Assembly (NCBI GenBank): GCA_944389345.1
Contig: CALXMA010000004.1
Span: forward strand, 14,374 to 78,373
Source of the DNA: an uncultured Alphaproteobacteria bacterium
GTDB taxonomy: Bacteria > Pseudomonadota > Alphaproteobacteria > Rs-D84
Direction of reading: 5' to 3'
Length of the DNA stretch: 64,000 nt
Shown: positions 4,490-41,946 of the stretch, piece after piece
Layout of the letters: every line of letters begins with the position of its first letter
Position numbering within the stretch: the first letter of the stretch is position 1
Program-made: the position numbers and the translations under genes
Notes under the pieces: model-generated
What the model saw: the letters and a program-made list of their open reading frames with translations, nothing else
Database searches by the model: none
Told to the model about the DNA's origin: nothing

Positions 4490-6967
4490 TTAAAACTTGT
4501 CATGTGTTTTTACAAAATCACGCATAAACGTTGCATCAAAATTATTCATAATTTCTGACAGTGAATATTTGCGTGTCCCGTCGGGGTATATAGATAAATC
4601 TATGGGCGCGGGTACGGGTGATGTGCCACGCAGTACCAGATTGAAATCTGCGGTCATGGAACCGTCGGCGATTTCCAGGTTGCCTGTCGCGTCTGTGTGG
4701 CGCATGCGCAACGTTATTGGTGTTGTTGTTGAAAACACCCCATTGTTATATTTACCGATAATGCGCATATTTTTTAATTCTGATATGCCACCATCCAGTG
4801 CGTATGACAGCGCATATTCCGCGTTAAATGTATTTATCTGGTTCGCGCCTGCAAAGAAATTATCAACACCAAAACCAACGATATATCCACCCTGGAACGT
4901 CAGGTCCAATTGACCAGACATATTATATTCCAGGTCGTGGGCGATGTTGCCGAATGTGTGCATATTTATTTCGCCCGTGATGGTTGTGTCGCCGACGTTT
5001 AACGGCATTTGTGGCCCCAGTAATTCACCGTTTGTTACAAACCTGTTTAACTGGGCAAAGATGTCATATTTGTTGCCTGTGCGTGATATGGTGGATAATA
5101 TATTCCCACGGTCTGCGTCGGTGATAGAAAATGTCTGGGTGTCGGGTTTCAGTGCGTATACAAAATTTCTGAACGCGTTTCCGCCGTATACTATTACGTC
5201 CGCCGATAACGATATGTTCACAGGAAATGTAAACGGAATAGTTATCGGTGCCGGTGTTAAATAGCCCAGTTCTTCGTAATTATCCAAGTAATCCGCATTC
5301 AAAAACGAATCCAGGTTTAATACGGTTGTATGCAGTGTTATGTTTTTATTACTGATACTGCCCGTGAATGTGTGGTCTGCGATTTTTATTTCCAGGTTCG
5401 ATACATTGTTCCCATTATATGTGCCAGATACGACGTATCCCATATTATTAAATGCGCGCATATCTGTGTTGGGAAACCAGTCTTTGGCGTTCGTTCCGGA
5501 TATGTAGAAATATTTATCTGTCAGGTATAATTCCCAACGGCCAGAATTCGGGACAAAGTGCATCATGTTGCCGTCCCAATTAAAATTGCCGACCGCGTTC
5601 TGCATGAACTTTGGTATGCCCGTCATATTCGGGTTTAACCACGATAATGTTTTATCGTTTGCAAATCTGTATGACGGTATTATATCGTCGGGACCGTTTA
5701 TCTGGTACGTGCCAGCAATGTCCGCAAATTCAAAGTCTATGGTTCCACGTGGTGCGAATTTCAGCAAATCGCGTATCGCGTCTGTGCGGTCAGGGGACGG
5801 CGTTTCGGAAAACACCAATAAATCAAATTTTTCGGGTGATACAGATATTGCGCCCGCGTAATTACCGTATGAAAATCTGGTACAATGCCAATCCGTGGGT
5901 GTTCCATAAAACAGGCATGATGCGGGGGCGCCCTGGTACGGCATATTTATCATTAAATCATGCGCGCCAAATGCGTCAATTGTCCCACCCGTGATGGCGA
6001 TGTCGTCCGCGACAATGGATTCTATTTGCAGATTATCGCGTGTGCCGTTGGCATTTACTTTCAAGTGTTCAAATGTACGTGCGCCAAAACGTATCGCGCC
6101 GGTAAAATCTAAATCAAATTTAGTTTGATAAAATATGCGCGATGGTTTGGTTAAAAATGACATATCATAGACTATGTCATGACCGCGCAATTTTACATCC
6201 TTGGTCCCGTCGGGGTTGATTGTTATGTTGCCCGTGATTCTGTCCATATGGATGTCGGTGAATTTCCATCCACGGCCACCGTCCCAATCAAATTTCATTG
6301 CCAGGTTCACGGTTTTATCTATGCGTGGTTCAGAAAAACCAAACCAACGATTTATGTCGTCTGTGCGCATCGATATTTTGCCACGTGCAGAACCGTCCGC
6401 AAATATTTGACCAGATATTTCCAAATCATCGTTTTGGTTCAAAACGTAAAATTCATCGTTTTCAAAATCTATGTCATATTTATGCTGGGCCGTGCGGATT
6501 ACACCGACCAAGTGGCCCGAATTTAACGTCGCGTTAATGATTTCAAATTCACGGTTTTTGAAATTTATATTCGAATTGTGTATTTCCAGTGGAATATCCA
6601 GATTCCACGGTATCAGATTTGATATGGATATATCCGCATCGTATATTGTTATATCATCCGTTAAACGGGCGTTATCCATATTAAATATGCTGGTAAACGG
6701 AACCGTAATCATTAACGCACCAATTGTTCCGTTTTGGATATGAACGTCATGTGCAACAATTGTTGTTCGGCCCAGCAAGCTGAAATGTATGTCCCCGTCT
6801 ATTTTTGCATGAATTCCCGTTTGTTCCGCAATCGTTGCAACGATTTTTGGTTTCAGGTTATTTAGCGTTATCATTGGTGGTACCAATACAACCGCCATAA
6901 CCCCCGCGCCAATTACGCCGACAACGGACCATAGAATTCTGCGTTTATATCTGGGTTTTAATGACAT
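4490..6967 (-). CDS. AsmA-family outer-membrane biogenesis protein
   Basis: 825 aa. There is an N-terminal TM anchor (ILWSVVGVIGAGVMAVVLV) followed by a long beta-rich periplasmic region, which is the typical AsmA/TamB-like architecture. A GAGGA ribosome-binding site sits upstream of the start codon. Confidence 0.7.
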   Translation of the reverse strand: MSLKPRYKRRILWSVVGVIGAGVMAVVLVPPMITLNNLKPKIVATIAEQTGIHAKIDGDIHFSLLGRTTIVAHDVHIQNGTIGALMITVPFTSIFNMDNARLTDDITIYDADISISNLIPWNLDIPLEIHNSNINFKNREFEIINATLNSGHLVGVIRTAQHKYDIDFENDEFYVLNQNDDLEISGQIFADGSARGKISMRTDDINRWFGFSEPRIDKTVNLAMKFDWDGGRGWKFTDIHMDRITGNITINPDGTKDVKLRGHDIVYDMSFLTKPSRIFYQTKFDLDFTGAIRFGARTFEHLKVNANGTRDNLQIESIVADDIAITGGTIDAFGAHDLMINMPYQGAPASCLFYGTPTDWHCTRFSYGNYAGAISVSPEKFDLLVFSETPSPDRTDAIRDLLKFAPRGTIDFEFADIAGTYQINGPDDIIPSYRFANDKTLSWLNPNMTGIPKFMQNAVGNFNWDGNMMHFVPNSGRWELYLTDKYFYISGTNAKDWFPNTDMRAFNNMGYVVSGTYNGNNVSNLEIKIADHTFTGSISNKNITLHTTVLNLDSFLNADYLDNYEELGYLTPAPITIPFTFPVNISLSADVIVYGGNAFRNFVYALKPDTQTFSITDADRGNILSTISRTGNKYDIFAQLNRFVTNGELLGPQMPLNVGDTTITGEINMHTFGNIAHDLEYNMSGQLDLTFQGGYIVGFGVDNFFAGANQINTFNAEYALSYALDGGISELKNMRIIGKYNNGVFSTTTPITLRMRHTDATGNLEIADGSMTADFNLVLRGTSPVPAPIDLSIYPDGTRKYSLSEIMNNFDATFMRDFVKTHDKF

Positions 6968-7014
6968 TCCTCTATTCCCTTGTTTTTTGATTATAATGAA
7001 TTATATTAACCTTT

Positions 7015-9003
7015 GTGAATAAAAAAATATTTGATCTTCAAAGTGATTATAAACCCATGGGGGATCAACCGCAGGCAATTTCCGAATTGGTGGCGGGTGT
7101 TCGTGATGGACGGCGCAGTCAGGTACTGTTGGGGGTGACGGGGTCTGGTAAAACTTTTACCATGGCTAATGTTATTGCGGAACTGGGGCGGCCGGCGATG
7201 ATTATGGCGCCTAATAAAATTCTGGCGGCACAGTTGTATACAGAAATGAAATCTTTTTTCCCGAATAATCACGTGGAATATTTTGTTTCTTACTATGATT
7301 ATTACCAGCCAGAGGCATATTTGCCAACAACCGATACATATATCGATAAAGATGCGTCTATTAATGAACAACTGGACCGTATGCGACACAGTGCAACGCG
7401 CGCCATGTTAGAAGAACGTGATGTTGTGGTGGTGTCTTCGGTGTCGTCTATTTATGGTATGGGGTCCCCAGAACAATATTCTGGGATGAAGGTTGTTTTG
7501 CGCACAGGGGATAAAACCGGTTTGGCCGATGTTGTGCGGTCGTTGGTTGATATTCAATACAAGCGTAATGATGTCGCGTTCGAACGTGGTTGTTTCCGGG
7601 TGCGCGGTGATACGTTGGATTTGTTCCCGTCGCATTCACAGGACCGCGGGTGGAAAATTTCTTTTTGGGGCGATGAAATCGAAGATATATGGGAATTCGA
7701 TACATTGACCGGGGCCAAGTTGCAAAAACTGGATAGGGTGGCGGTGTATCCAAATACGCACTATGCAACGCCTATGCCGTCTATATTACAGGCGATTGGG
7801 CAGATTCGCGCCGATTTAGCAGAACGGTTGAAATATTTTCACGATAATATGAAATATATCGAAGAACAACGTCTGCGCGAACGTGTTAATTTTGATATAG
7901 AAATGATGGAATCAACCGGTACATGTCGCGGAATTGAAAATTATTCACGATATTTATCGGGGCGTGCACCGGGACAGCCACCACCAACATTGTTCGAATA
8001 TTTACCAGATGATGCCGTGCTGTTCATAGACGAAAGTCATGTAACCGTACCACAGATTTCCGCAATGTCGCGCGGGGACAGGGCACGAAAAGAAACGTTG
8101 TCCCAATATGGATTTCGGTTGCCGGCATGTATTGATAACAGACCCCTGACGTTTGAAGAATGGGACGTGTTGCGCCCCCAGACCATATTTGTGTCCGCAA
8201 CGCCGGCGGAATGGGAACTGAATCAATCGGGTGGAATTGTGTCTGAACAGGTTATCAGACCAACGGGGTTGTTGGACCCAGAATGCGAAGTGCGCCCAAC
8301 CGAACACCAGGTGGATGATTTATTGGCCGAGGTCAAGAAAATCAAAGGTCGCGTTTTGGTTACAACATTGACCAAAAAAATGGCGGAACAATTAACGGAC
8401 TATTTCGTGGAAAATGGCGTGCGGGCCAAGTATCTGCACAGTGATATTGAAACACTGGAACGTATTGAATTGTTGCGTGATTTGCGATTGGGTAAATTCG
8501 ATGTGTTGGTGGGAATTAACCTGTTACGCGAAGGTTTGGATGTACCAGAATGTGAACTGGTCGCGATTATGGATGCAGATAAAGAAGGGTTCTTGCGGTC
8601 AACGCGGTCGCTGATTCAGACAATAGGGCGCGCGGCGCGTAATGCAAATGGGCGTGTGATTTTGTATGCGGATGTTATGACGGATTCTATGAAATCTGCG
8701 CTGGGGGAAACGGCGCGCCGTCGGGAAAAACAAATGGCGTATAACCGTGCCCACAATATCACACCGAAAACCGTGACCAAGGCCGTATTTGCCGAAGTTG
8801 GCGATAAAAACGAAAAGACCGATAAAAAACGCAAATTTGTTTATACGTCTGATGGGGTTATGGATGCAGAAACATTGCGTCGTGATATCAAAAAACTGAC
8901 CAAGCAAATGCGCGACGCCGCAGAAGATTTGGATTTTGAACGCGCCGCGGAACTGCGTGATGCTATCCATAAAATGGAAGATGATTTGTTGCTGTTGGAG
9001 TAG
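7015..9003 (+). CDS. uvrB: Excinuclease ABC subunit B
   Basis: 662 aa. Features are the N-terminal ...SDYKPMGDQPQAISEL..., the Walker A motif GVTGSGKTF and helicase motifs, and a C-terminal UvrB/UvrC-interaction domain ending ...AAELRDAIHKMEDDL. It starts with GTG at 7015. Confidence 0.95.
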   Translation: MNKKIFDLQSDYKPMGDQPQAISELVAGVRDGRRSQVLLGVTGSGKTFTMANVIAELGRPAMIMAPNKILAAQLYTEMKSFFPNNHVEYFVSYYDYYQPEAYLPTTDTYIDKDASINEQLDRMRHSATRAMLEERDVVVVSSVSSIYGMGSPEQYSGMKVVLRTGDKTGLADVVRSLVDIQYKRNDVAFERGCFRVRGDTLDLFPSHSQDRGWKISFWGDEIEDIWEFDTLTGAKLQKLDRVAVYPNTHYATPMPSILQAIGQIRADLAERLKYFHDNMKYIEEQRLRERVNFDIEMMESTGTCRGIENYSRYLSGRAPGQPPPTLFEYLPDDAVLFIDESHVTVPQISAMSRGDRARKETLSQYGFRLPACIDNRPLTFEEWDVLRPQTIFVSATPAEWELNQSGGIVSEQVIRPTGLLDPECEVRPTEHQVDDLLAEVKKIKGRVLVTTLTKKMAEQLTDYFVENGVRAKYLHSDIETLERIELLRDLRLGKFDVLVGINLLREGLDVPECELVAIMDADKEGFLRSTRSLIQTIGRAARNANGRVILYADVMTDSMKSALGETARRREKQMAYNRAHNITPKTVTKAVFAEVGDKNEKTDKKRKFVYTSDGVMDAETLRRDIKKLTKQMRDAAEDLDFERAAELRDAIHKMEDDLLLLE

Positions 9004-9006
9004 GAT

Positions 9007-9408
9007 ATGCAAAAAGTATATGAACTGAAAAATATCGATGAAACGCGTGCGTGGGCACGGGATTTTGCAAAAACACTGCGTGCGCCGTGTGTTGTTGCGT
9101 TGCATGGTGATTTGGGTATGGGAAAATCTGAGATTGCACGAACAATAATTCAGACCTTGCGTGGAACCGATACCGTCGTCCCCAGTCCAACATTCACAAT
9201 CGTACAGAACTATGATGGAATATCACATTTTGACCTGTATCGTATAGAAGATAAATCAGAGTTGGTTGAAATCGGTTTGCCGTATGCAATTCAAAACGAT
9301 ATCACGTTAATAGAATGGCCAGAAATTGCATCTGATATTTTACCGGATAATACAATTCATGTGTATTTAACCGGGGATGGCGATATGCGAAAACTGGTTA
9401 TAGAATAA
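9007..9408 (+). CDS. tsaE: tRNA threonylcarbamoyladenosine biosynthesis protein TsaE (P-loop ATPase YjeE)
   Basis: 133 aa with ...VVALHGDLGMGKSEIAR... and TFTIVQNY...HFDLYR. It starts 4 bp after the uvrB stop. Confidence 0.85.
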   Translation: MQKVYELKNIDETRAWARDFAKTLRAPCVVALHGDLGMGKSEIARTIIQTLRGTDTVVPSPTFTIVQNYDGISHFDLYRIEDKSELVEIGLPYAIQNDITLIEWPEIASDILPDNTIHVYLTGDGDMRKLVIE

Positions 9409-9416
9409 GTTAAAAA

Positions 9417-11204
9417 TTATACAGTTTTTGATTTTTTCAGCAGACTTTGTACCGCCAATGGAAAATCAGCACTGTTGGCCAGGTATGAACCACTGACCAA
9501 TAAATCAGCGCCGGCGGCCCAGCATTTCTGGGCCGTTTGTGCATTTATGCCACCGTCCACAGATATCAAGTATTTGAATCCGCCACGTTTGCGTGCCGTA
9601 TTCAAAATCGAAATCTTGCGCAGGCATGATTCTTGGAATTCTTGGCCCGCAGAACCGGGTGCAACCGCCATAATCATAATTTCATCTATTTCACGTAATA
9701 TCGGTTCCAGTATTTTAATCGAAGAATCCGGATTCAGCGCAATCCCGGCACGACGACCAGATGCGTGGATTAATTTTATCGCAGAACGTACCCCGGATGT
9801 ATTTGTCGATATGATAATCGTATTTGCACCGGCGCGTATTGCGTCTGCGGCCCAAAATTCGGGACTTTCCGTCATCAGGTGTACGTGCAAATGTGCCGTT
9901 GTATGTTTTCGTATGTATTGTAATTCTTCGATACTGCCACGTATGTTTTCAACGTACAGGCCGTCCATAATGTCGACGTGTATCATTGAAATTCCGCCCG
10001 ATGCAAACATAGAATATGTTTCCGGGCGCGACATGTCAAAGCACAATGTACTGGGCAAAACAGGAATAAATTTAGCGGTATTGTTCCGGCGACGTTTGCC
10101 AGTAAACAGCGATGTTATGCGCGACGTGATGTTATGTATGCGCTGACTGCGTGCCAGGTATGCATTGATATGGGCGTTTTCGCGCGACCAGATATATTTG
10201 AACAACGATTGTAACGTGCCGTCGCGCGCGATGTTTTTAACCGGCAGTCCAAATTCGTTTTCTATGAATTCGGATATAGTGTCTATTTCCGAACCACCGC
10301 CAGACAGAATTATCTGTGTCGGGCGACGACGTTGGATTTCCGGACCACAGTGAATGCGTATCTGGGAACAGATTTCAACCATAATTGGTAAAATAACATC
10401 GTTTATGTCCGCACGCGAAAAATCATATTCTGTGTCCGCGGGGGTAAAGCGGTCCATGTCTTTGGGCAACATTGTTGCAACGTTATGTTTTATCCGCTGG
10501 GCGTCTGCGAATTCCAGGCCAAATTTATTCGCGATTTCATTCGTTATATTTGTTCCGCCGATTTCCAGTTTTTTATGAAACATAGGGCCACGGTCTGTCC
10601 AAATTGATACCGTGGTAAATTGGGCGCCCAAATCTATGAACAATGCCGTCGTTTTTTCAGGGCGCAGAACAGACTGTTGTAAAAACTGAGAATCATAAAT
10701 CGCCAGTGGTTGAATGTGTGCCTGGTGTAAAATGGATATTATGTTTTCCAGCGCATCTTTGGAATAAAATATTACACCGAACAGTGATGACAACTGGGTA
10801 TCAATGTATCCAACGGGCGAATTTAAATCCGGTGCGCTGGGGATTTTATAGCGCAATGGAAACATATGCATAGGAAAATATCCATCCGGACAAGATATAC
10901 TGGCAATTTGTGCACTGACGTCCGATGCGGTTATTTTATGTTCGCCGGGCCATGTGGTGTTTTTTTGTTGTTTTTCAAATATGGATGGCCCCAGGTTGCC
11001 CGTTATATATGCGCCGTCAAAATGTTCCCCAATTTTATGTTCCAGTTCGTCAATCACAGATTTCAGTGCAGATACCGTATCCGTACTGTCCACCGTGTGG
11101 ATTGCAGAATCTGTAATGCGACCGGATCGTATATGGTATGCCGTGCCACGGACACCACTTGTCCCCAGGTCCAGACATAAAAAAGCAGAATCTAATAAAT
11201 TCAT
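9417..11204 (-). CDS. ftsA-rpe: Apparent in-frame fusion: short actin-like cell-division protein FtsA (N-terminal ~380 aa) + ribulose-phosphate 3-epimerase (C-terminal ~215 aa)
   Basis: The N-terminal part has ASKHA/FtsA-like motifs: LCLDLGTSGVRGTAY, FIDLGAQFTTVSIW...LEIGGTNITNEIANKFGL and IILSGGGSEIDTISEFIENEFGLPV. It lies directly downstream of ftsQ. The C-terminal part is unmistakably Rpe: SGGISMIHVDIMDGLYVENI..., HLHVHLM, ...MAVAPGSAGQEF and ISVDGGINAQTAQKCWAAGADLLVSGSYL. There is no stop codon between the two parts, so the single ORF is 595 aa. Confidence 0.7.
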   Translation of the reverse strand: MNLLDSAFLCLDLGTSGVRGTAYHIRSGRITDSAIHTVDSTDTVSALKSVIDELEHKIGEHFDGAYITGNLGPSIFEKQQKNTTWPGEHKITASDVSAQIASISCPDGYFPMHMFPLRYKIPSAPDLNSPVGYIDTQLSSLFGVIFYSKDALENIISILHQAHIQPLAIYDSQFLQQSVLRPEKTTALFIDLGAQFTTVSIWTDRGPMFHKKLEIGGTNITNEIANKFGLEFADAQRIKHNVATMLPKDMDRFTPADTEYDFSRADINDVILPIMVEICSQIRIHCGPEIQRRRPTQIILSGGGSEIDTISEFIENEFGLPVKNIARDGTLQSLFKYIWSRENAHINAYLARSQRIHNITSRITSLFTGKRRRNNTAKFIPVLPSTLCFDMSRPETYSMFASGGISMIHVDIMDGLYVENIRGSIEELQYIRKHTTAHLHVHLMTESPEFWAADAIRAGANTIIISTNTSGVRSAIKLIHASGRRAGIALNPDSSIKILEPILREIDEIMIMAVAPGSAGQEFQESCLRKISILNTARKRGGFKYLISVDGGINAQTAQKCWAAGADLLVSGSYLANSADFPLAVQSLLKKSKTV

Positions 11205-11213
11205 TTTTGTGTT

Positions 11214-11954
11214 TTATTTTACCAAGATACGGGCGTCATCGCGCATATCTATGATTTCCAGGTCTTTGGATAAAATTTGGTGGTTTTTATCCAATACAAT
11301 CAAACTGGCCATTGCGGTTTCAGGATTCTTTTCCGGCAACATTATCGTTATACCGCCCGTTGTATGAACGTTCCAACGTCTGTGTTCAATCCATTCAATA
11401 TAATCCAGGTCGTCAATAATCCCCATCGCCGCGTTAGTTATTTCCGATACATCTGGGGGTAATTCACCACGAAATACGACCGTGCCAGCCGTGCGTGTAT
11501 CAGATGGGCGATTGACGATTGTCCCGTCCGCAGACAGTGGGTAATACATTTCGCCATCTGTCCATTGGGCAACAGCCTGGTGTAATTGGACGCGTACAGA
11601 CAGGTTGCCGTTCGGCATTCTGCGTACAGATGAATTGCGCACACCCGGTGTGGCCATAATACGCTGGTTAATTTCGTCCAGGCGTGCCTGGTACGAATGT
11701 GTATTTGGGGCAATCGCAATCGCCGTCGCGATTTGGGTTAAATCCTTGTTCGGGGTGTCCGCAGACAATGATATTGTACGTATGTTGGCATTCGGACCAC
11801 GTCCGGTATATGTCAAAATAATACGTGTTGATAAATACACAGCCAAAACAATGGCTATGAAAAAATACAGCCAAAACCAGATAGAACGTTTCATGCGTTC
11901 AATTATATCATAAATTATTTTTGTTGGAAAGTGCGGGCGCAAATTAATTTGCAC
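11214..11954 (-). CDS. ftsQ: Cell division protein FtsQ (POTRA domain)
   Basis: 246 aa. It has an N-terminal TM helix (IWFWLYFFIAIVLAVYL) followed by a POTRA-like region, and it sits immediately upstream of ftsA. Confidence 0.75.
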   Translation of the reverse strand: MQINLRPHFPTKIIYDIIERMKRSIWFWLYFFIAIVLAVYLSTRIILTYTGRGPNANIRTISLSADTPNKDLTQIATAIAIAPNTHSYQARLDEINQRIMATPGVRNSSVRRMPNGNLSVRVQLHQAVAQWTDGEMYYPLSADGTIVNRPSDTRTAGTVVFRGELPPDVSEITNAAMGIIDDLDYIEWIEHRRWNVHTTGGITIMLPEKNPETAMASLIVLDKNHQILSKDLEIIDMRDDARILVK

Positions 11955-35136: not shown

Positions 35137-36234
35137 ATGGCAAAAAAAGAAGTCGCAAAAGATGTTTCGGCACCGGCAAAAAATCCGGCGTTGGAATCTG
35201 CGTTGGCACAAATTCAAAAGCAATTCGGTAAAGACGCAATTATGAAAATGGGCGATGGGTCCCAGCAGGGGATTGAGGCTATTTCGTCCGGGTCTTTGGG
35301 ATTGGATATCGCGTTGGGAATTGGTGGGTATCCGCGCGGGCGAATTGTTGAAATTTATGGTCCGGAAAGCAGTGGTAAAACCACACTGGCATTGCATGCC
35401 GTGGCCGAAGCGCAAAAAAAAGGTGGGACTTGCGCATATATTGATGCGGAAAATGCGTTGGATCCGTCGTATGCAAAAAAACTGGGTGTTGATGTCGCAA
35501 ATTTAATTATATCCCAGCCGGATTCCGGGGAACAGGCGTTGGAAATTGCCGATACGCTGATTAAATCTGGGGCGGTTGATGTTGTTGTTATCGATTCGGT
35601 TGCGGCACTGGTGCCCAAGGCGGAATTAGAGGGTAATATTGGTGATTCTTTTGTTGGAACAACCGCGCGGTTGATGTCGCAGAGTTTGAAAAAATTGGCG
35701 GGGTCTGTGTCGCGCAGTAATACGCTGTTAATCTTTATTAATCAAATCCGTATGAAGATTGGGGTTATGTTTGGAAACCCGGAAACGACATCTGGGGGGA
35801 ATGCGTTAAAGTTCTATGCGTCGGTGCGTCTGGATATTCGTCGCACGGGTCAGATTAAGGATAAAGAAAACGTTATCGGTAATGAAACGCGTGTTAAAAT
35901 TGTTAAAAACAAGGTTGCGCCACCATTCCGTACCGTCGATTTCAAAATTATGTATGGCGAAGGTATTTCCCGTATCAGTGAAATTCTGGACATGGGGGTA
36001 AAGTACGATTTTATCGAAAAAGCCGGCAGTTTTTATTCTTATAATAATGAACGTATGGGCCAGGGTGAAAATAATGCGCGTCAATGGTTGCGCGATCACC
36101 CAGATGTTCAACAGGAATTGTTAGATAAAATTATGGCGCGCGCAAATGGTATCGCCGAAGAAATGACAACGGGGCCGGCCGATGACGATGATGTTGTCGG
36201 ACAGGATGTGGCGCCGGTTGAAGGGGATTTATAA
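35137..36234 (+). CDS. recA: Recombinase RecA
   Basis: Walker A is GPESSGKTT. Further motifs are ...[17 protein letters not shown]..., the L2 loop region ...[35 protein letters not shown] and an acidic C-terminal tail. The start is taken at MAKKEV (AAGGGGAA lies 6 nt upstream). Confidence 0.97.
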
Positions 36235-36247
36235 AAAAGGGGTAAAT

Positions 36248-37153
36248 ATGAATTTGGCCAGAATTTGGACTCTGTCGGGTGTGGTTTTGCGTGGGCATGT
36301 GTTGAATTGGTTTTGGCGGGACCGTGCCGTGCGTCATGATATTCGTGGCGATGTAATAGGAACGGCGTTGCCAAAATATTTTCGGCGCTATTTATCAGCA
36401 GTTGAACGTATGCCCGTCAGAAGTGTGGTCAAAGACGATGCAAACGAAAAAATATTTACCATCTGGTTACAGGGCGAAGACAATGCGCCACCGTTGGTCA
36501 AGGCCTGCTATCGCAGTGTGCGAAAGCATTGCAAGCAAGAATTGGTGGTGTTGGACGAAAAAACGTTGCCACAATATATTACTCTGCCAGATGTAATTAT
36601 GAAAAAACGCGCCCAGGGAAAAATTAAAAACGCGCATTTCGCGGATATTTGTAGGGTGGAATTATTATATAAGTATGGCGGTTTTTGGTTGGATTCAACC
36701 GGATTTGTTACCGCACCAATTCCTGATTGGATTGTGAATGAAGATTTCTTTGTGTTCATGGCGGGGCACGCGGGCAGTCCGTACAGTTTTATACAAAACT
36801 GTTTCATTCGGGCGCGTCGGGGTGCGTATTTGCTGGATGCGTGGCGGGCAATGATTCTGGATTACTGGACCCATGAAAACAGCAACTTTGATTATTTTAT
36901 GCACCAATTAATGTTCAAGACATTGGTCATGTATGACGAACGTGCAAAAAAAGAATTCGCCAAAATGCCACATGTCGACCAAGATCCGACCCATGCGCTG
37001 TGGTGGGAATATTGTGATAAGCCGTTTAATCAAAAAACATTTGATTCTGTTGTGGCGCCCGTGTTCTTTCAAAAGACTACGTATGCCCAGGCTAAAAATC
37101 CAATCCCGGGCAGTTTCGCAGATGTTATGATTAATAAAATGAACCAAGACTGA
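36248..37153 (+). CDS. Capsular-polysaccharide-synthesis-like glycosyltransferase (DxD sugar-binding type)
   Basis: It has ...IFTIWLQGEDNAPPLVKACYRSVRKH... and ...YKYGGFWLDSTGF..., which resemble the Caps_synth/Gly_transf_sug family. The start is at MNLARIW (AAGGGG ribosome-binding site). The ORF track start lies inside recA. Confidence 0.6.
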   Translation: MNLARIWTLSGVVLRGHVLNWFWRDRAVRHDIRGDVIGTALPKYFRRYLSAVERMPVRSVVKDDANEKIFTIWLQGEDNAPPLVKACYRSVRKHCKQELVVLDEKTLPQYITLPDVIMKKRAQGKIKNAHFADICRVELLYKYGGFWLDSTGFVTAPIPDWIVNEDFFVFMAGHAGSPYSFIQNCFIRARRGAYLLDAWRAMILDYWTHENSNFDYFMHQLMFKTLVMYDERAKKEFAKMPHVDQDPTHALWWEYCDKPFNQKTFDSVVAPVFFQKTTYAQAKNPIPGSFADVMINKMNQD

Positions 37154-37170
37154 TGCGGGGGGAAATAGGT

Positions 37171-38205
37171 ATGCCGGAAATTTCTGTGATTATCCCTGTG
37201 TACAATGTGGAAAAGTATCTGCGTCGTTGTTTGGACAGTTTGTTGGCCCAGACATTTACCGATTGGCATGCGATATGTGTAAATGACGGCAGTGTGGATA
37301 AATCTGGGGAAATTTTGGCCGAATACGCACAACGCGATTCGCGTTTTACCGTGGTGAATATTCCAAATTCTGGGCCCGCATGTGCGCGAAATGTTGGTAT
37401 AGAACGGGCCCAGGGAAAATACGTAATGTGTGTTGATGGGGATGATTTTATTCATCCCCAGACAATGGAAATCGCGCATTTCTTGGCCGTGCGGGATGGG
37501 TCTGATATTGTGTCTTTTACATATGACAGATCGTATCGTCCTTATTTAATGGTGCGATATAAATTGGGGTTGGGGATAGAAAATATCGAACCGCTGGGGA
37601 TTCGGCGTCGGTATCGGCCCGCGGCGGTGCGGACGTTGGTGACGGATGATATTTTTGCCTATGCGACAGAACAGACGCATAATGCATTTAATCCAAAGCG
37701 CAGGTGGCTGATTAAGCATACGCAGGTTTGGAAAAATTTGTATAGGCGCGATTTAATTGCAGATGTAAAATTTATTGATGGAATTTTGTACGAAGATTTC
37801 CCGTGGTGGTCGGCGGTCATGCTGAAAAATCCGCGGGTGACAATTGCGCCGTTGCCGTTGTATTATTATGTGCCGAATTTTGGCGGAATATTCTTGTCCG
37901 CCGGCCAGATGCGTGCGTTTGATGGAATGTGTACGGGTGTGCGGGATACTTTTTTGTTGTACCAGGCCAAAGCGAGCCCGTATCAAATGCAACAATGGTC
38001 CAAGAACTTTAAGTGGTATTTTATCAAGTGGGCATTTAATAAAATTAAATATTTTACCAGTGTGGCGGATTTGAACAAGGCGCGCAATTGGTTCAGGGAA
38101 CTGGACAGAATTGGGGCGTTGGATAGTCCGCATAACAAAAAAACAAAAAAACTGCGTCAGAAAATTTGCGCGTTTATAAAGGATTGCCACCAAAATGACA
38201 GATGA
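37171..38205 (+). CDS. Family 2 glycosyltransferase (GT-A), paralogue 1 of 3
   Basis: It has ISVIIPVYNVEKYLRRCLDSLLAQTF...ICVNDGSVD...MCVDGDDFIHP (DxD). The start is at MPEISV. The 3' end contains an A7-C-A7 tract (38138-38152). Confidence 0.85.
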   Translation: MPEISVIIPVYNVEKYLRRCLDSLLAQTFTDWHAICVNDGSVDKSGEILAEYAQRDSRFTVVNIPNSGPACARNVGIERAQGKYVMCVDGDDFIHPQTMEIAHFLAVRDGSDIVSFTYDRSYRPYLMVRYKLGLGIENIEPLGIRRRYRPAAVRTLVTDDIFAYATEQTHNAFNPKRRWLIKHTQVWKNLYRRDLIADVKFIDGILYEDFPWWSAVMLKNPRVTIAPLPLYYYVPNFGGIFLSAGQMRAFDGMCTGVRDTFLLYQAKASPYQMQQWSKNFKWYFIKWAFNKIKYFTSVADLNKARNWFRELDRIGALDSPHNKKTKKLRQKICAFIKDCHQNDR

Positions 38206-39244
38206 CAAACCAAAAATTTCAGTAATAATTCCAATATACAATGTGGAAAAATATTTGCGTCGCTGTTTGGACAGTATGTTGTCCCAAACATTTACCGATT
38301 GGCAGGCGATATGTGTAAATGACGGCAGTCCTGATAACTGTGGTGAAATATTATCAGAATATGCCGGACGTGATGGTCGTTTCAAAATAGTAAACAAAGA
38401 AAACGGTGGGCTGTCTGATGCGCGAAATGCGGGTATGCGTGTTGCAGACGGCGATTTTATTTTATTTTTAGACAGTGATGATTTTATTCATCCGCAAACA
38501 CTGGAAATCGCATATTTTCTGGCCACGCGTGATGGCACAGACATTGTTTCTTTTACCTATGATCGCGCGTTCAGAACGGAACTGATGGTGCGTAATAAAC
38601 TGGGGTTGGCGTGCGATGGGGTTATGCCGAAAAAATATAATCGTCGGTATCAGATTGCACAAATAAAAACGTTGGTTACCGACGACGTTTATGCGTATGC
38701 AACCGAACGCACCCATAATGCATTTAATCCAAAGCGCAGGTGGCTGATTAAGCATTGTCAGGTTTGGAAAAATTTATATCGGCGTGAACTGATTTCAGAT
38801 ATTCCTTTTATTAAGGGGATTTTATTCGAAGATTTCCCGTGGTGGTCGGCGGTCATGCTGAAAAATCCGCGGGTGACAATTGCGCCGTTGCCGTTGTATT
38901 ATTATGTGCCGAATTTTGGCGGGATTGTTTTGTCGGCTAAACAGTTGCGTATTTTGCACAGTTTGTGTGATGGTATGGAATATGCGTACAAGTTATACAG
39001 CACGCAGGCCACAGAATATCAGGCGCGTCAATGGAATTACAATTTTAAGTGGTTCTTTATAAAGAAGATTTTGCGTAAAACAAAATACTTGGATAATCGG
39101 GTGGATTTGAATTCTGCGCGGGAACGTGTTTGTGAATTGGAAAAAATTGGCGCGTTGGATAATCCGCCGTGTCGGTGGGCGCGACGTGTGCGGTGTCGTG
39201 TGTGTCATTTTATAAAGGATTGTTGTAAGCATGTCAAAGCGTAA
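38195..39244 (+). CDS. Family 2 glycosyltransferase, paralogue 2 of 3 (mosaic: 5' third identical to paralogue 3, central block identical to paralogue 1)
   Basis: It has KISVIIPIYNVEKYLRRCLDSMLSQTF...NDGSPD...LFLDSDDFIHP. The DNA at 38207-38511 is identical to 39243-39547, and 38828-38922 is identical to 37792-37886. Confidence 0.85.
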   Translation: MTDDKPKISVIIPIYNVEKYLRRCLDSMLSQTFTDWQAICVNDGSPDNCGEILSEYAGRDGRFKIVNKENGGLSDARNAGMRVADGDFILFLDSDDFIHPQTLEIAYFLATRDGTDIVSFTYDRAFRTELMVRNKLGLACDGVMPKKYNRRYQIAQIKTLVTDDVYAYATERTHNAFNPKRRWLIKHCQVWKNLYRRELISDIPFIKGILFEDFPWWSAVMLKNPRVTIAPLPLYYYVPNFGGIVLSAKQLRILHSLCDGMEYAYKLYSTQATEYQARQWNYNFKWFFIKKILRKTKYLDNRVDLNSARERVCELEKIGALDNPPCRWARRVRCRVCHFIKDCCKHVKA

Positions 39245-40253
39245 ACCAAAAATTTCAGTAATAATTCCAATATACAATGTGGAAAAATATTTGCGTCGCT
39301 GTTTGGACAGTATGTTGTCCCAAACATTTACCGATTGGCAGGCGATATGTGTAAATGACGGCAGTCCTGATAACTGTGGTGAAATATTATCAGAATATGC
39401 CGGACGTGATGGTCGTTTCAAAATAGTAAACAAAGAAAACGGTGGGCTGTCTGATGCGCGAAATGCGGGTATGCGTGTTGCAGACGGCGATTTTATTTTA
39501 TTTTTAGACAGTGATGATTTTATTCATCCGCAAACACTGGAAATCGCGCACAAGTACATTGTACAAAATAACGCAGATGTGTTTTTGTTTGGGTATGATG
39601 AAAAATCGCACCGTAAATTATTACGGTTGATGCGGGGCGGGTTTGATGTGTCGGGGTGTGTGCCGGGGGCGGTGAGCAGAAAATACAATATCGATGGCGT
39701 GCATGTGCACAAGATAAAAAAATTATTGTTTCACTGTACCGAACGAAATCGTACTGTGCGGGTTTTGCATCCTGTGCGTCGGCATTGTTTCCCGGTGTTG
39801 GCATTGTATCGACGTGATTTCATTTCTGATTTGCCGTTCGTGCGTGGAATTATATATGAAGATTTTGTTTGGTGGTCTTTATTGATTCTGCGTCGGCCCA
39901 AGACGGTTATGACAAAATTACCGTTGTATTTTTATATGCCGAATCCGACGTCTATATTAAATGCATCGCGTGCGTTGCGGGTGGTGAAATCATTATGTGA
40001 TGGAATTGGTATTGTTTACGATGCGTATTCTGTGAATGCGACGGGGCGCGAATTAAAGCATTATATGCGGGAGTTTTTGTGGCCGTTTACATTCATCGCA
40101 ATGCAACATGCACGCCAGATTACAGACGAAAAAGACCGGGCCATTGTGGCAGATAATTTGAAAAAATTATACAGCGCGGGTGTGTTTGATAATCCACCGA
40201 ATCGGCGCGCACGGCGGTATCTGGGGCGAATACGGGATTTTATAAATAACTAG
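39231..40253 (+). CDS. Family 2 glycosyltransferase, paralogue 3 of 3
   Basis: The N-terminal 100 aa are identical to paralogue 2. The C-terminal two-thirds have diverged (...VFLFGYDEKSHRKLL...). Confidence 0.85.
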   Translation: MSKRKPKISVIIPIYNVEKYLRRCLDSMLSQTFTDWQAICVNDGSPDNCGEILSEYAGRDGRFKIVNKENGGLSDARNAGMRVADGDFILFLDSDDFIHPQTLEIAHKYIVQNNADVFLFGYDEKSHRKLLRLMRGGFDVSGCVPGAVSRKYNIDGVHVHKIKKLLFHCTERNRTVRVLHPVRRHCFPVLALYRRDFISDLPFVRGIIYEDFVWWSLLILRRPKTVMTKLPLYFYMPNPTSILNASRALRVVKSLCDGIGIVYDAYSVNATGRELKHYMREFLWPFTFIAMQHARQITDEKDRAIVADNLKKLYSAGVFDNPPNRRARRYLGRIRDFINN

Positions 40254-41101
40254 ATTCTGGATTTTTGAAAGCGCGATGGAATTTTTACAACGCGACGCAG
40301 GCCGAACATCCCGGGTTTGTCGAATGCATATATTGGGCGTGCAAAAGTTTGTATGATGCGCGCGTATCGCATCCATTTTTCGTCGCGTACGGGCAGGGTG
40401 GATACCGCATTAATTGTTCCGTTCCCCCGACGGCGCAGGTGATTTACCCAATCGGGACCACGGGATTTGGCCTTGTTCAACAGCATCTGCATATCGACCG
40501 CACCAAAGTGTAACAAGTATAAGTTTTTATCAATGTGAAAATTGTGACCAGATATGCTGTGGAAACCACTGCCCCAATGGGCGGGGGTGGTTTTTACAAC
40601 AGGCTTGGTATATCTGGTGGATAACAGTGCATATTCACGTTGGGCCAGGATGGGTTTGTTGATGTCCAAAGTTTTTTCTGTGTTCGTGTTTTGACCAACG
40701 TCCAGTCCCAATCCCGATACCGATATATTTATGTCCAGGTCAGATAAATATTCGGCCAATGTTTTTTGTGTGTCTGGATCAACAACCAGAAATTCATCAC
40801 AATCGCAACCAATTACTATATCGTATGTTTTCAGCAATTTGTGTGCCAATGTGTTTATCAGTCCTATGCGATATTTGTCGCCATCGGCGCGCGACATTTC
40901 AACGTGCGATAATTTCTTTACATGGGCCGGACCGGCATTTTCAGGAATATTTTGATCCGTTCCATCCAGGTATATGTACAGGTTTTCACGACCAAATTGT
41001 TCCCCGTAATATTTTATCCAACGGGATAAAAAGAAATCGTCATTGCGGGCCATTGTTATGACCGCGATTTTTTTTTGTGTATGGTTTGTTGGATTGGTCA
41101 T
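40250..41101 (-). CDS. Putative GT-A-fold glycosyltransferase with A9 homopolymer at codons 9-12
   Basis: It has ...KKIAVITMARNDDFFLSRWIKYYGEQFG...YDIVIGCDCDEFLVVDPD (DxD-like). The start is taken at MTNPTNHTQKK. Nine consecutive A (minus strand) at 41068-41076 encode QKKI. Confidence 0.55.
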   Translation of the reverse strand: MTNPTNHTQKKIAVITMARNDDFFLSRWIKYYGEQFGRENLYIYLDGTDQNIPENAGPAHVKKLSHVEMSRADGDKYRIGLINTLAHKLLKTYDIVIGCDCDEFLVVDPDTQKTLAEYLSDLDINISVSGLGLDVGQNTNTEKTLDINKPILAQREYALLSTRYTKPVVKTTPAHWGSGFHSISGHNFHIDKNLYLLHFGAVDMQMLLNKAKSRGPDWVNHLRRRGNGTINAVSTLPVRDEKWMRYARIIQTFARPIYAFDKPGMFGLRRVVKIPSRFQKSRI

Positions 41102-41946
41102 ATTCCCTCGCCAAAAAGTTTGTGAAAAAAGTATCTGCAACTTCTGTATAATATTTTAATAGGATTTCGTGTTAAAAGCCAGTCTATATATTCCGTGCCG
41201 TATGCGTCGCGTGCGCTGGTCAGTATTATGTCGCGCAGGTCGGGGGATAAATGCGACAGGATATATGACAACTGGCCACCAAGACGGCCATAGTGGCGGG
41301 TGAACGCGACCTTTTTGAAAAATGGACATTTGGATTTATAGAAATATTTTACGTTGTTGTATATCTTGCGTCCAGGGGCCGTATACAGGTACGAAAATTT
41401 AATGTTGTGTGCAAACAACATACGGGAAAATCCTTGTTCGTAAAAATATGTTATCAGGCCTTTGTTTGGTTGACGTGATACAGATGTTATAAATTTATCA
41501 AACCAGTTTGATGCAAATACCGGTTTGCGCATACCAATAAACCAAGATTGGATATGCGGGTTTTTGCGATTCGCATTATATACCAAACCAAACGCGTCGC
41601 GATTCGTTGATTCCAGTTTTTCCAGCGCGGGTAATAATGGATTTACCGGGCCATATACCGAATCGTTTATCATATATACAAATTCATAATTGCCCAGAAT
41701 TCCCGTGTCCCGGGCATATATGTATGCGCGTTTATATGAACCAAAATCGTATTCACCGTGCCGGTGGGCCGATGCAAAGATTGTGTACGGTGCAACCTTG
41801 TGCATTTCTGTGTCTGGCACATCACTGTCCATAACCAGGATAACATCGCCAAATTCAGACAGGCTTTTTGCCATATAAACCAGCGATGCATCAACCACGT
41901 TTTTTGCATTATAGCCGGCCAATAAAAATAGTCGTCTAGATTTCAC
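41098..41946 (-). CDS. Polysaccharide-biosynthesis protein (rhamnan-synthesis RgpF-like / LPS biosynthesis, uncertain)
   Basis: 282 aa. It is hydrophilic with conserved-looking acidic clusters (...VILVMDSDVPD..., ...YMINDSVYGP...). It sits inside the glycosyltransferase locus, overlapping the upstream typA stop by 11 bp and the downstream glycosyltransferase start by 4 bp. Confidence 0.4.
   Translation of the reverse strand: MKSRRLFLLAGYNAKNVVDASLVYMAKSLSEFGDVILVMDSDVPDTEMHKVAPYTIFASAHRHGEYDFGSYKRAYIYARDTGILGNYEFVYMINDSVYGPVNPLLPALEKLESTNRDAFGLVYNANRKNPHIQSWFIGMRKPVFASNWFDKFITSVSRQPNKGLITYFYEQGFSRMLFAHNIKFSYLYTAPGRKIYNNVKYFYKSKCPFFKKVAFTRHYGRLGGQLSYILSHLSPDLRDIILTSARDAYGTEYIDWLLTRNPIKILYRSCRYFFHKLFGEGI

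Follow-up and report, generated by a model that had tools for sequence, protein, structure and literature searches.

The window considered here, that is the whole stretch of 64,000 nucleotides (nt) taken from contig CALXMA010000004.1 of an uncultured member of the Alphaproteobacteria (assembly GCA_944389345.1), contains three neighbouring genes that are identical over some segments and widely diverged over others. How could such a patchwork have arisen? The genes, which we call G1, G2 and G3, are open reading frames (ORFs) for glycosyltransferases of family 2 (GT2). They stand head to tail with an exact period of 1036 nt, inside an island of glycosyltransferase genes that is bordered by recA and typA/bipA (Table 1). 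The answer that we reach is that segments have been exchanged non-reciprocally between adjacent paralogues; this has occurred in two species and is polymorphic within one of them. Judging from the comparison of sequences, recurrent segmental gene conversion, or homologous exchange, among the tandem GT2 paralogues of a surface-glycan island is very probably what we are looking at. Recent conversion or recombination among these paralogues had already been proposed in an earlier note on this DNA. It is now supported by the contrast in synonymous divergence (dS) along the genes, by the breakpoint found in a sister species (L097), by the state of the locus on a contig of the same species (L113) and by hybrid genes in two further strains (L091 and L092).

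The identity of the blocks is the natural place to start. G2 and G3 share a block of 305 nt, and exact string comparison confirms the identity that the earlier note had reported for it. A second identical block joins G1 and G2. The note had given it as 95 nt from position 37792; the identity stands, but the block is 96 nt long and starts at 37791. The further identical stretch of 42 nt that had been claimed for the same pair is present as well, at 37678-37719 and again 1036 nt downstream. String comparison adds several identical runs of 17-24 nt to the blocks of 305, 96 and 42 nt, while G1 and G3 have only short identical runs in common. A repeat search puts every copy of the repeats in register, with a spacing of exactly 1036 nt.

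Statistical comparison of the three genes gives the same picture. A GENECONV-like permutation test was applied to the sites at which G1, G2 and G3 differ, 544 in number. It detected a run of 86 concordant sites for G2/G3 and one of 43 for G1/G2 (p<1e-4 for each pair), and was not significant for G1/G3 over the same sites (p=0.66). The maximum chi-square for G2/G3 reaches 259, at alignment column 320. Inside the 305-nt block the dS of this pair is about 0.03, against 1.4-2.5 outside it, and beyond this 5' block the bodies of the two genes have about 36-59% DNA identity. For G1/G2, dS is 0.09 around the 96-nt block and above 1 elsewhere; around the block, orthologue and cross comparisons all give 0.45-0.63. 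This region (alignment columns 631-735 of G1/G2, at 37789-37893 and 38825-38929) keeps that range in every comparison, across species, and the segments next to it are saturated. Nucleotide-level constraint or repeated older exchange could be the cause of the low values.

What happens in a related species is informative. The sister species L097 has the same gene order, recA-CapsS-G1'-G2'-G3'-GT2_4-RgpF-typA. The 5' segments of its G2' and G3' are 95, 82 and 80% identical per 90-nt bin, with a dS of 0.42, and within the window the sliding identity of the 5' segments of G2 and G3 is 93-100%. If orthologues of L097 and the window are compared instead, the 5' segments are only 70-79% identical and dS is about 1.6. 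In both species the 5' block of G3 groups with G2 of its own genome and not with its G3 orthologue. Since similarity within each genome exceeds similarity between orthologues, the 5' part of G3 must have been homogenised with G2 separately in each species. The maximum chi-square breakpoint is at nearly the same column in both (323 in L097 and 320 in the window), just after the DXD motif; this shared 3' boundary is explained by the collapse of homology between the gene bodies at that point.

Is the exchange also visible within a species? The host is known from metagenome-derived sequences only, and the relatives retrieved are likewise metagenomic; most or all of the comparison assemblies are apparently built from short reads, and the evidence on strains is drawn wholly from such metagenome assemblies. 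More than 20 of these, obtained independently for the species, have the three genes in this layout together with the block; the mosaic is therefore no artefact of a single assembly. The exact G1 protein is encoded on contigs in 54 blocks of the sequence collection. Single-nucleotide polymorphisms (SNPs) in the flanks are mosaic among strains.

One contig of the species, L113, is about 99% identical to the window in the flanks and has 10 differences between its 305-nt copies and 3 between its 96-nt copies. Its G2 block is like that of the window and its G3 block is not: the G3 block of the window differs from it at 8 sites. As the window's G3 block equals the G2 block and yet is 8 sites away from the G3 block of L113, a recent conversion of G3 by G2 in the lineage of the window would explain the difference, and the sequences indicate that this was the direction.

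Other strains carry hybrid genes. A protein search with G2 returned four hybrids, and two of them are on contigs without N (L091, a scaffold of 36 kb, and L092, of 5.9 kb). On both, G1 is followed by a gene with the 5' part of G2 and the 3' part of G1, and then by G3. The crossover is clean in each case. In L091 it falls within the 96-nt block, and in L092 between 38758, where the G2 type is last seen, and 38776, where the G1 type begins (G2 coordinates). The 3' part of these middle genes is identical to the adjoining G1, including the private SNPs of that strain. The L092 crossover lies in an identity of only 17 nt, which would not mislead a de Bruijn assembler; at least L092 thus reflects real molecules. 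The hybrids come from exchange between G1 and G2 in the 3' half and not from recombination between the 305-nt repeats. It had been suggested that deletion between these repeats would create a hybrid gene; in fact it would remove G2 and change G3 at four N-terminal residues (MTDD for MSKR).

These four residues are useful in another respect. The stop of each gene overlaps the start of the next, by 11 nt for G1/G2 (38195-38205) and by 14 nt for G2/G3 (39231-39244). Because the first four codons of G3 sit within the 3' end of the gene upstream, its N-terminus reports which paralogue stands there. For the G3-cluster members listed, the MSKR start of a G2-to-G3 junction is found on about 50 contigs and the MTDD start of a G1-type-to-G3 junction on 5. 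We considered whether the G3 allele with the MTDD start (P0121) marks a separate strain lineage, and rejected the idea: the allele exists with the MSKR start too (P0211), and the flanks are mosaic.

Several facts weigh against recurrent exchange as the whole explanation. Short-read assemblers cannot phase single SNPs inside a repeat of 305 nt, so the exact identity of its copies is not verifiable. Whenever a SNP is found in the interior of the block it is present in both copies, L113 being the exception, and copy-specific differences lie within about 50 nt of its edges; short-read collapse gives the same pattern, and "exactly identical" should be taken to allow for one or two differences at most. 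In four public scaffolds (L008, L010, L108 and L112) a gap of 100 N coincides exactly with the 305-nt repeat. For L091 the crossover is in the 96-nt repeat, where an alternative graph walk is possible with small k-mers. A contig with two copies, L093, shows a precise deletion of 1036 nt within the repeat at a coverage of only 4x, and two short contigs, L101 and L102, begin or end in repeats and match alternative Eulerian walks. Finally, every comparison gives a low dS around the 96-nt block, and constraint or older exchange therefore accounts for part of the similarity of G1 and G2 there. The mosaic patch between these two genes, which the earlier note ascribed to conversion, is thus explained by it only in part; the remainder is conservation, as the invariant residues E212-D213 and the generally lowered dS indicate.

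Most of these points could be turned into a single alternative, namely that the blocks, together with the hybrid and two-copy variants, are assembly artefacts that come from collapsed repeats or from wrong walks through short-read graphs. It survives better than its competitors, and we nevertheless consider it improbable. If the genes were uniformly diverged, no assembler could turn them into a mosaic whose identity falls sharply from about 100% to about 40%. The concordant assemblies number more than 20 and show two styles of contig naming. The mosaic of L097, at 80-95% identity, is not collapsible, and L113 resolves 10 interior differences; larger ones would show in the other assemblies. The L092 crossover, for its part, lies in an identity that is under any usual k-mer size.

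The limits of the assemblies do decide what may be counted as evidence. SNPs common to both copies of the block could be taken as a sign of concerted evolution; we rejected them for this purpose, as short-read assemblers produce the same pattern. L093, L112, L101 and L102, candidates for deletion, duplication or reciprocal-hybrid variants, were set aside as ambiguous on account of low coverage, placeholder gaps and ends in repeats. The N gaps are at about 11104-11203 in L008, at about 3603-3702 in L010 and at 5592-5691 in both L108 and L112; in L112, G1 runs straight into the body of G3 across the gap. At these gapped scaffolds gene callers give truncated genes of 201-218 amino acids (aa), which is an annotation hazard. 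L101 (1461 nt) has a G3-type start, a G2 body and a G1 tail (P0003), and L102 (1120 nt) has a G1 head and a G2 tail (P0004). Put together with a G3 that has the MTDD start, they make up an array with "swapped tails", equivalent to an alternative Eulerian walk through two repeats. Both contigs are probably assembly chimeras.

A second alternative, still less probable, is that a chimeric gene was born once, long ago, and that the shared domain has since been under strong purifying selection, with no ongoing exchange. The N-terminal half of GT2 proteins is indeed conserved family-wide (G2-type and G3-type proteins of different genomes share about 72-79% aa identity), and the dS of the region that encodes the E-D residues is low everywhere. 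But selection on protein leaves synonymous differences, and dS within the block is about 0 against 1.6 between orthologues. Moreover, two species were homogenised separately after their split, strains of one species differ in their state, and the hybrids differ in their breakpoints. The idea that the blocks were imported from other strains or species by horizontal allele replacement is no better placed: the mosaic flank SNPs do imply a population that recombines, and the G3 block of L113 could be an imported diverged allele, but import leaves unexplained the identity of the G3 block with the G2 block in its own genome, and it does not account for hybrids whose 3' part equals the neighbouring G1 together with its strain-private SNPs.

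Returning to exchange between paralogues as the preferred explanation, we can ask how it might proceed. Head-to-tail copies with similar stretches would allow misaligned or sister copies to recombine by homologous recombination of the RecA type, and RecA-dependent recombination between misaligned copies is the route that we infer. Segments would then be copied repeatedly from paralogue to paralogue, that is by non-reciprocal gene conversion, and the copy number would perhaps be altered occasionally. In the lineage of the window, the 5' segment of G3 (the nucleotide-sugar half through the DXD motif) would have been overwritten by that of G2, and a short segment at the catalytic E-D region would have been homogenised between G1 and G2. 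Conversion tracts end where homology collapses. Elsewhere in the species, strains have had between a third and a half of G2, at its 3' side, replaced by that of G1. G2 and G3 may use the same donor sugar with different acceptors, and the hybrids may give a changed glycan. The variation might be maintained by selection, for instance from phages or the immune system of the host.

A different kind of variation can be dismissed. The tract A7-C-A7 that the earlier note saw at the end of G1 does exist, though it is situated somewhat upstream of the stop codon and so does not itself form the end of G1. No variation in its length was found in ungapped 9-kb alignments of more than 15 assemblies. Phase variation at this tract was therefore rejected as an explanation. 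As for a simple-sequence-repeat contingency locus more generally, alignments of the array are ungapped in all complete assemblies and the array does not qualify as one.

What do the three genes encode? All score well above the PF00535 cut-off of 23.3 bits (G1 114, G2 129 and G3 130), which places them in GT2. The DXD motif reads DSDD at residues 93-96 of G2 and G3 and DGDD in G1; D93, D95, D96, E212 and D213 are invariant among 39 homologues. An AlphaFold model of G2, made with these 39 homologues, has a mean predicted local distance difference test score (pLDDT) of 91.3 and a predicted template modelling score (pTM) of 0.90. In this model a core of the GT-A fold, about residues 8-245, is followed by a helical bundle at 250-340. 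The 305-nt block encodes residues 5-106, which in the model hold strands beta1-beta4, the DSDD motif and the start of helix 4, the predicted nucleotide-sugar half, and the 96-nt block encodes G2 residues 212-243, including the invariant E212-D213. The 3' part swapped in the hybrid genes maps to the predicted C-terminal helical bundle. G1-G3 are predicted non-processive family 2 glycosyltransferases of the GT-A fold. A more specific enzyme name is not given to them, because the NCBIfam matches are N-terminal only and sub-threshold: in the NCBIfam search none of the three reached an equivalog cut-off (the best match was PRK10073, 129 bits against a cut-off of 423), and their sequence matches in PDB and NCBIfam are confined to roughly the first 120 residues. 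The NCBIfam search gave no match for the proteins of the Caps_synth, GT2_4 and RgpF-like genes.

The remaining features of the locus are collected in Table 1.

Table 1. Genes and repeated segments of the recA-typA island (positions in the window)
Feature	Position	Strand	Basis
305-nt identical block, G2 copy, codons 5-106	38207-38511	+	exact string comparison; dS about 0.03
305-nt identical block, G3 copy, begins at the G2 stop codon	39243-39547	+	exact string comparison
96-nt identical block, G1 copy	37791-37886	+	exact identity; permutation p<1e-4, dS 0.09
96-nt identical block, G2 copy; crossover interval of the L091 hybrid gene	38827-38922	+	
42-nt identical block, G1; partner 38714-38755 in G2	37678-37719	+	
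17-nt identity, G2; partner 37723-37739 in G1; crossover interval of the L092 hybrid	38759-38775	+	
A7-C-A7 tract in G1, part of NKKTKKL, 52 nt before the G1 stop	38137-38151	+	
recA, left border of the island	35137-36234	+	Pfam RecA E 2e-139; 365 aa called in all related contigs
Caps_synth / DXD-type glycosyltransferase, island gene 1, 301 aa	36248-37153	+	PF05704 E 1e-60, PF04488
G1, GT2 paralogue, 344 aa (350 aa from alternative start 37153)	37171-38205	+	PF00535 E 9e-33
G2, GT2 paralogue, 349 aa	38195-39244	+	PF00535 E 2e-37
G3, GT2 paralogue, 340 aa	39231-40253	+	PF00535 E 1e-37
GT2_4-type glycosyltransferase, 283 aa, convergent with G3	40250-41101	-	PF13704 E 2e-12
RgpF-like protein (rhamnan synthesis protein F family, N-terminal part only)	41098-41946	-	PF05045 E 2e-13
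typA/bipA, right border of the island, 611 aa	41936-43771	-	Pfam GTP_EFTU and BipA_C

The island comprises six genes, of which the first four (the Caps_synth-type glycosyltransferase and G1 to G3) are on the forward strand and the other two (GT2_4 and the RgpF-like gene) on the reverse strand; G3 and the convergent GT2_4 gene overlap by 4 nt at their stops (40250-40253). The recA gene is directly upstream of the array in the same orientation, 14 nt before the first glycosyltransferase gene, and this arrangement is kept in all three sister species. The adjacency is probably a coincidence. The Caps_synth-type protein is 71-76% identical to its copies in two sister species. Identity to the sister species is about 60% for the RgpF-like protein and 76-79% for GT2_4, and about 95% for the adjacent TypA. 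On the basis of such sequence comparisons, the whole island evolves much faster than its flanks. It is probably a small surface-glycan island, concerned with the decoration of lipopolysaccharide (LPS) or lipooligosaccharide; genes of the LptF/G type nearby in the host lineage imply an LPS-bearing envelope. One contig of a sister species (L100) is labelled gut metagenome.

How far does the array extend beyond the nearest relatives? L011, the nearest GTDB species representative, has a RecA 97% and a TypA 95% identical to those of the window. Its island (6827-11595, corresponding to 36248-41946 of the window) consists of a Caps_synth gene, one G2-like GT2 gene (341 aa, 75% identical to G2), a gene for a glycosyltransferase of the GT4 type (380 aa), a GT2_4 gene and an RgpF-like gene. 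With a single G2-like GT2 and a GT4 at the same site, the content of the island must be evolutionarily fluid in the clade. Relatives with RecA proteins 73% and 70% identical to that of the window (L012 and L013) have no GT2 array beside recA. Megablast of the region against Escherichia coli genomes gave no match, and a scan of Joint Genome Institute (JGI) metagenome contigs for a 40-mer of the 305-nt block found none.

G2-type and G3-type proteins occur together on the same contigs in many alphaproteobacterial metagenome-assembled genomes. The two genes thus form an old pair, the body of G3 being a member of a separate and older subfamily. In nine more distant genomes with such a pair, homogenisation of the 5' block is absent, the N-terminal identity within a genome being equal to that between genomes. 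We thus rejected the possibility that this homogenisation is general to G2-type/G3-type pairs; it is lineage-specific.

What might the exchange be for? One speculative suggestion, which we regard as possible but rather unlikely, goes beyond the occurrence of conversion. The conversion would be not only recurrent but also bounded by domains, and the array would be a module-swapping device that makes strain-level glycan types under diversifying selection from phages or immunity. The donor-binding half of G3 would repeatedly be reset to that of G2, in each of two species independently, and a smaller share of strains would have acceptor-side or helical C-terminal modules exchanged between G1 and G2, in a host that is apparently gut-associated.

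Whatever the purpose, the array follows a familiar bacterial route to variation in surface sugars, and neither a new mechanism nor a new kind of system is involved. Its value lies elsewhere. It provides a clean, population-supported case of segmental conversion between adjacent glycosyltransferase genes in a lineage without cultured representatives. The island between recA and typA is the strain-variable surface-glycan locus of the species, useful for strain typing and for questions about selection by phages and immunity. There is also a practical lesson: at the 305-nt repeat short-read assemblies break or go astray, with N gaps, possible chimeric contigs and a possible false two-copy contig as the result, so calls of gene content at this locus need long reads.

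Several known systems can be compared with the array. By fold, the closest solved structures to the G2 model in a Foldseek search are those of GalT1/CgT (5hea), RmlT (entries beginning 8bz), TarP (beginning 6h) and TarS (beginning 5tz), with E values of 1e-15 to 1e-20 and template modelling (TM) scores of about 0.6. With them the modelled protein would share the GT-A core, the DXD motif and the C-terminal helical extension, although sequence identity is only 17-23%. They act on wall teichoic acid or on serine-rich-repeat adhesins of Gram-positive bacteria, substrates that are inapplicable to this host.

In its evolution the array resembles the cases of concerted evolution known from tuf genes, rRNA operons and pilE/pilS, the last summarised in PMC10745880 for its gene conversion. 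Like them, it has an identity of paralogues within a genome that exceeds that of orthologues, sharp tract boundaries and an exchange that would depend on RecA. Unlike them, it has only one subdomain homogenised while the rest is diverged, and unlike pilE/pilS it has no silent cassettes, all three genes being intact ORFs of the expressed type.

The most instructive comparison is with the lgt locus of Neisseria gonorrhoeae and N. meningitidis (lgtA-B-C-D-E). LgtA and LgtD are GT2 enzymes of about 340 aa, and rearrangements of the locus are ascribed to recombination between homologous pairs. Its published description gives ORFs 1 and 2 as homologous to ORFs 4 and 5 (PMC2191774), and a further report states that Neisseria strain 15253 has kept only lgtA and lgtE (PMC2192810). 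A deletion of lgtB has been recorded during infection (PMC10745880). No Lgt-named family was among the NCBIfam results for the array proteins, and no direct comparison with Lgt sequences was made. There are clear differences. The array is devoid of poly-G or any variable homopolymer tract, hence of phase variation by strand slippage; its paralogues follow one another directly, each stop overlapping the next start, and its host is an uncultured alphaproteobacterium. What the two have in common is architecture alone: tandem paralogous glycosyltransferase genes, homologous without being identical, with a content that varies among strains. By analogy, and without filing the array as a member, we therefore regard the lgt locus as its closest analogue and the array as lgt-type in its recombinational aspect.

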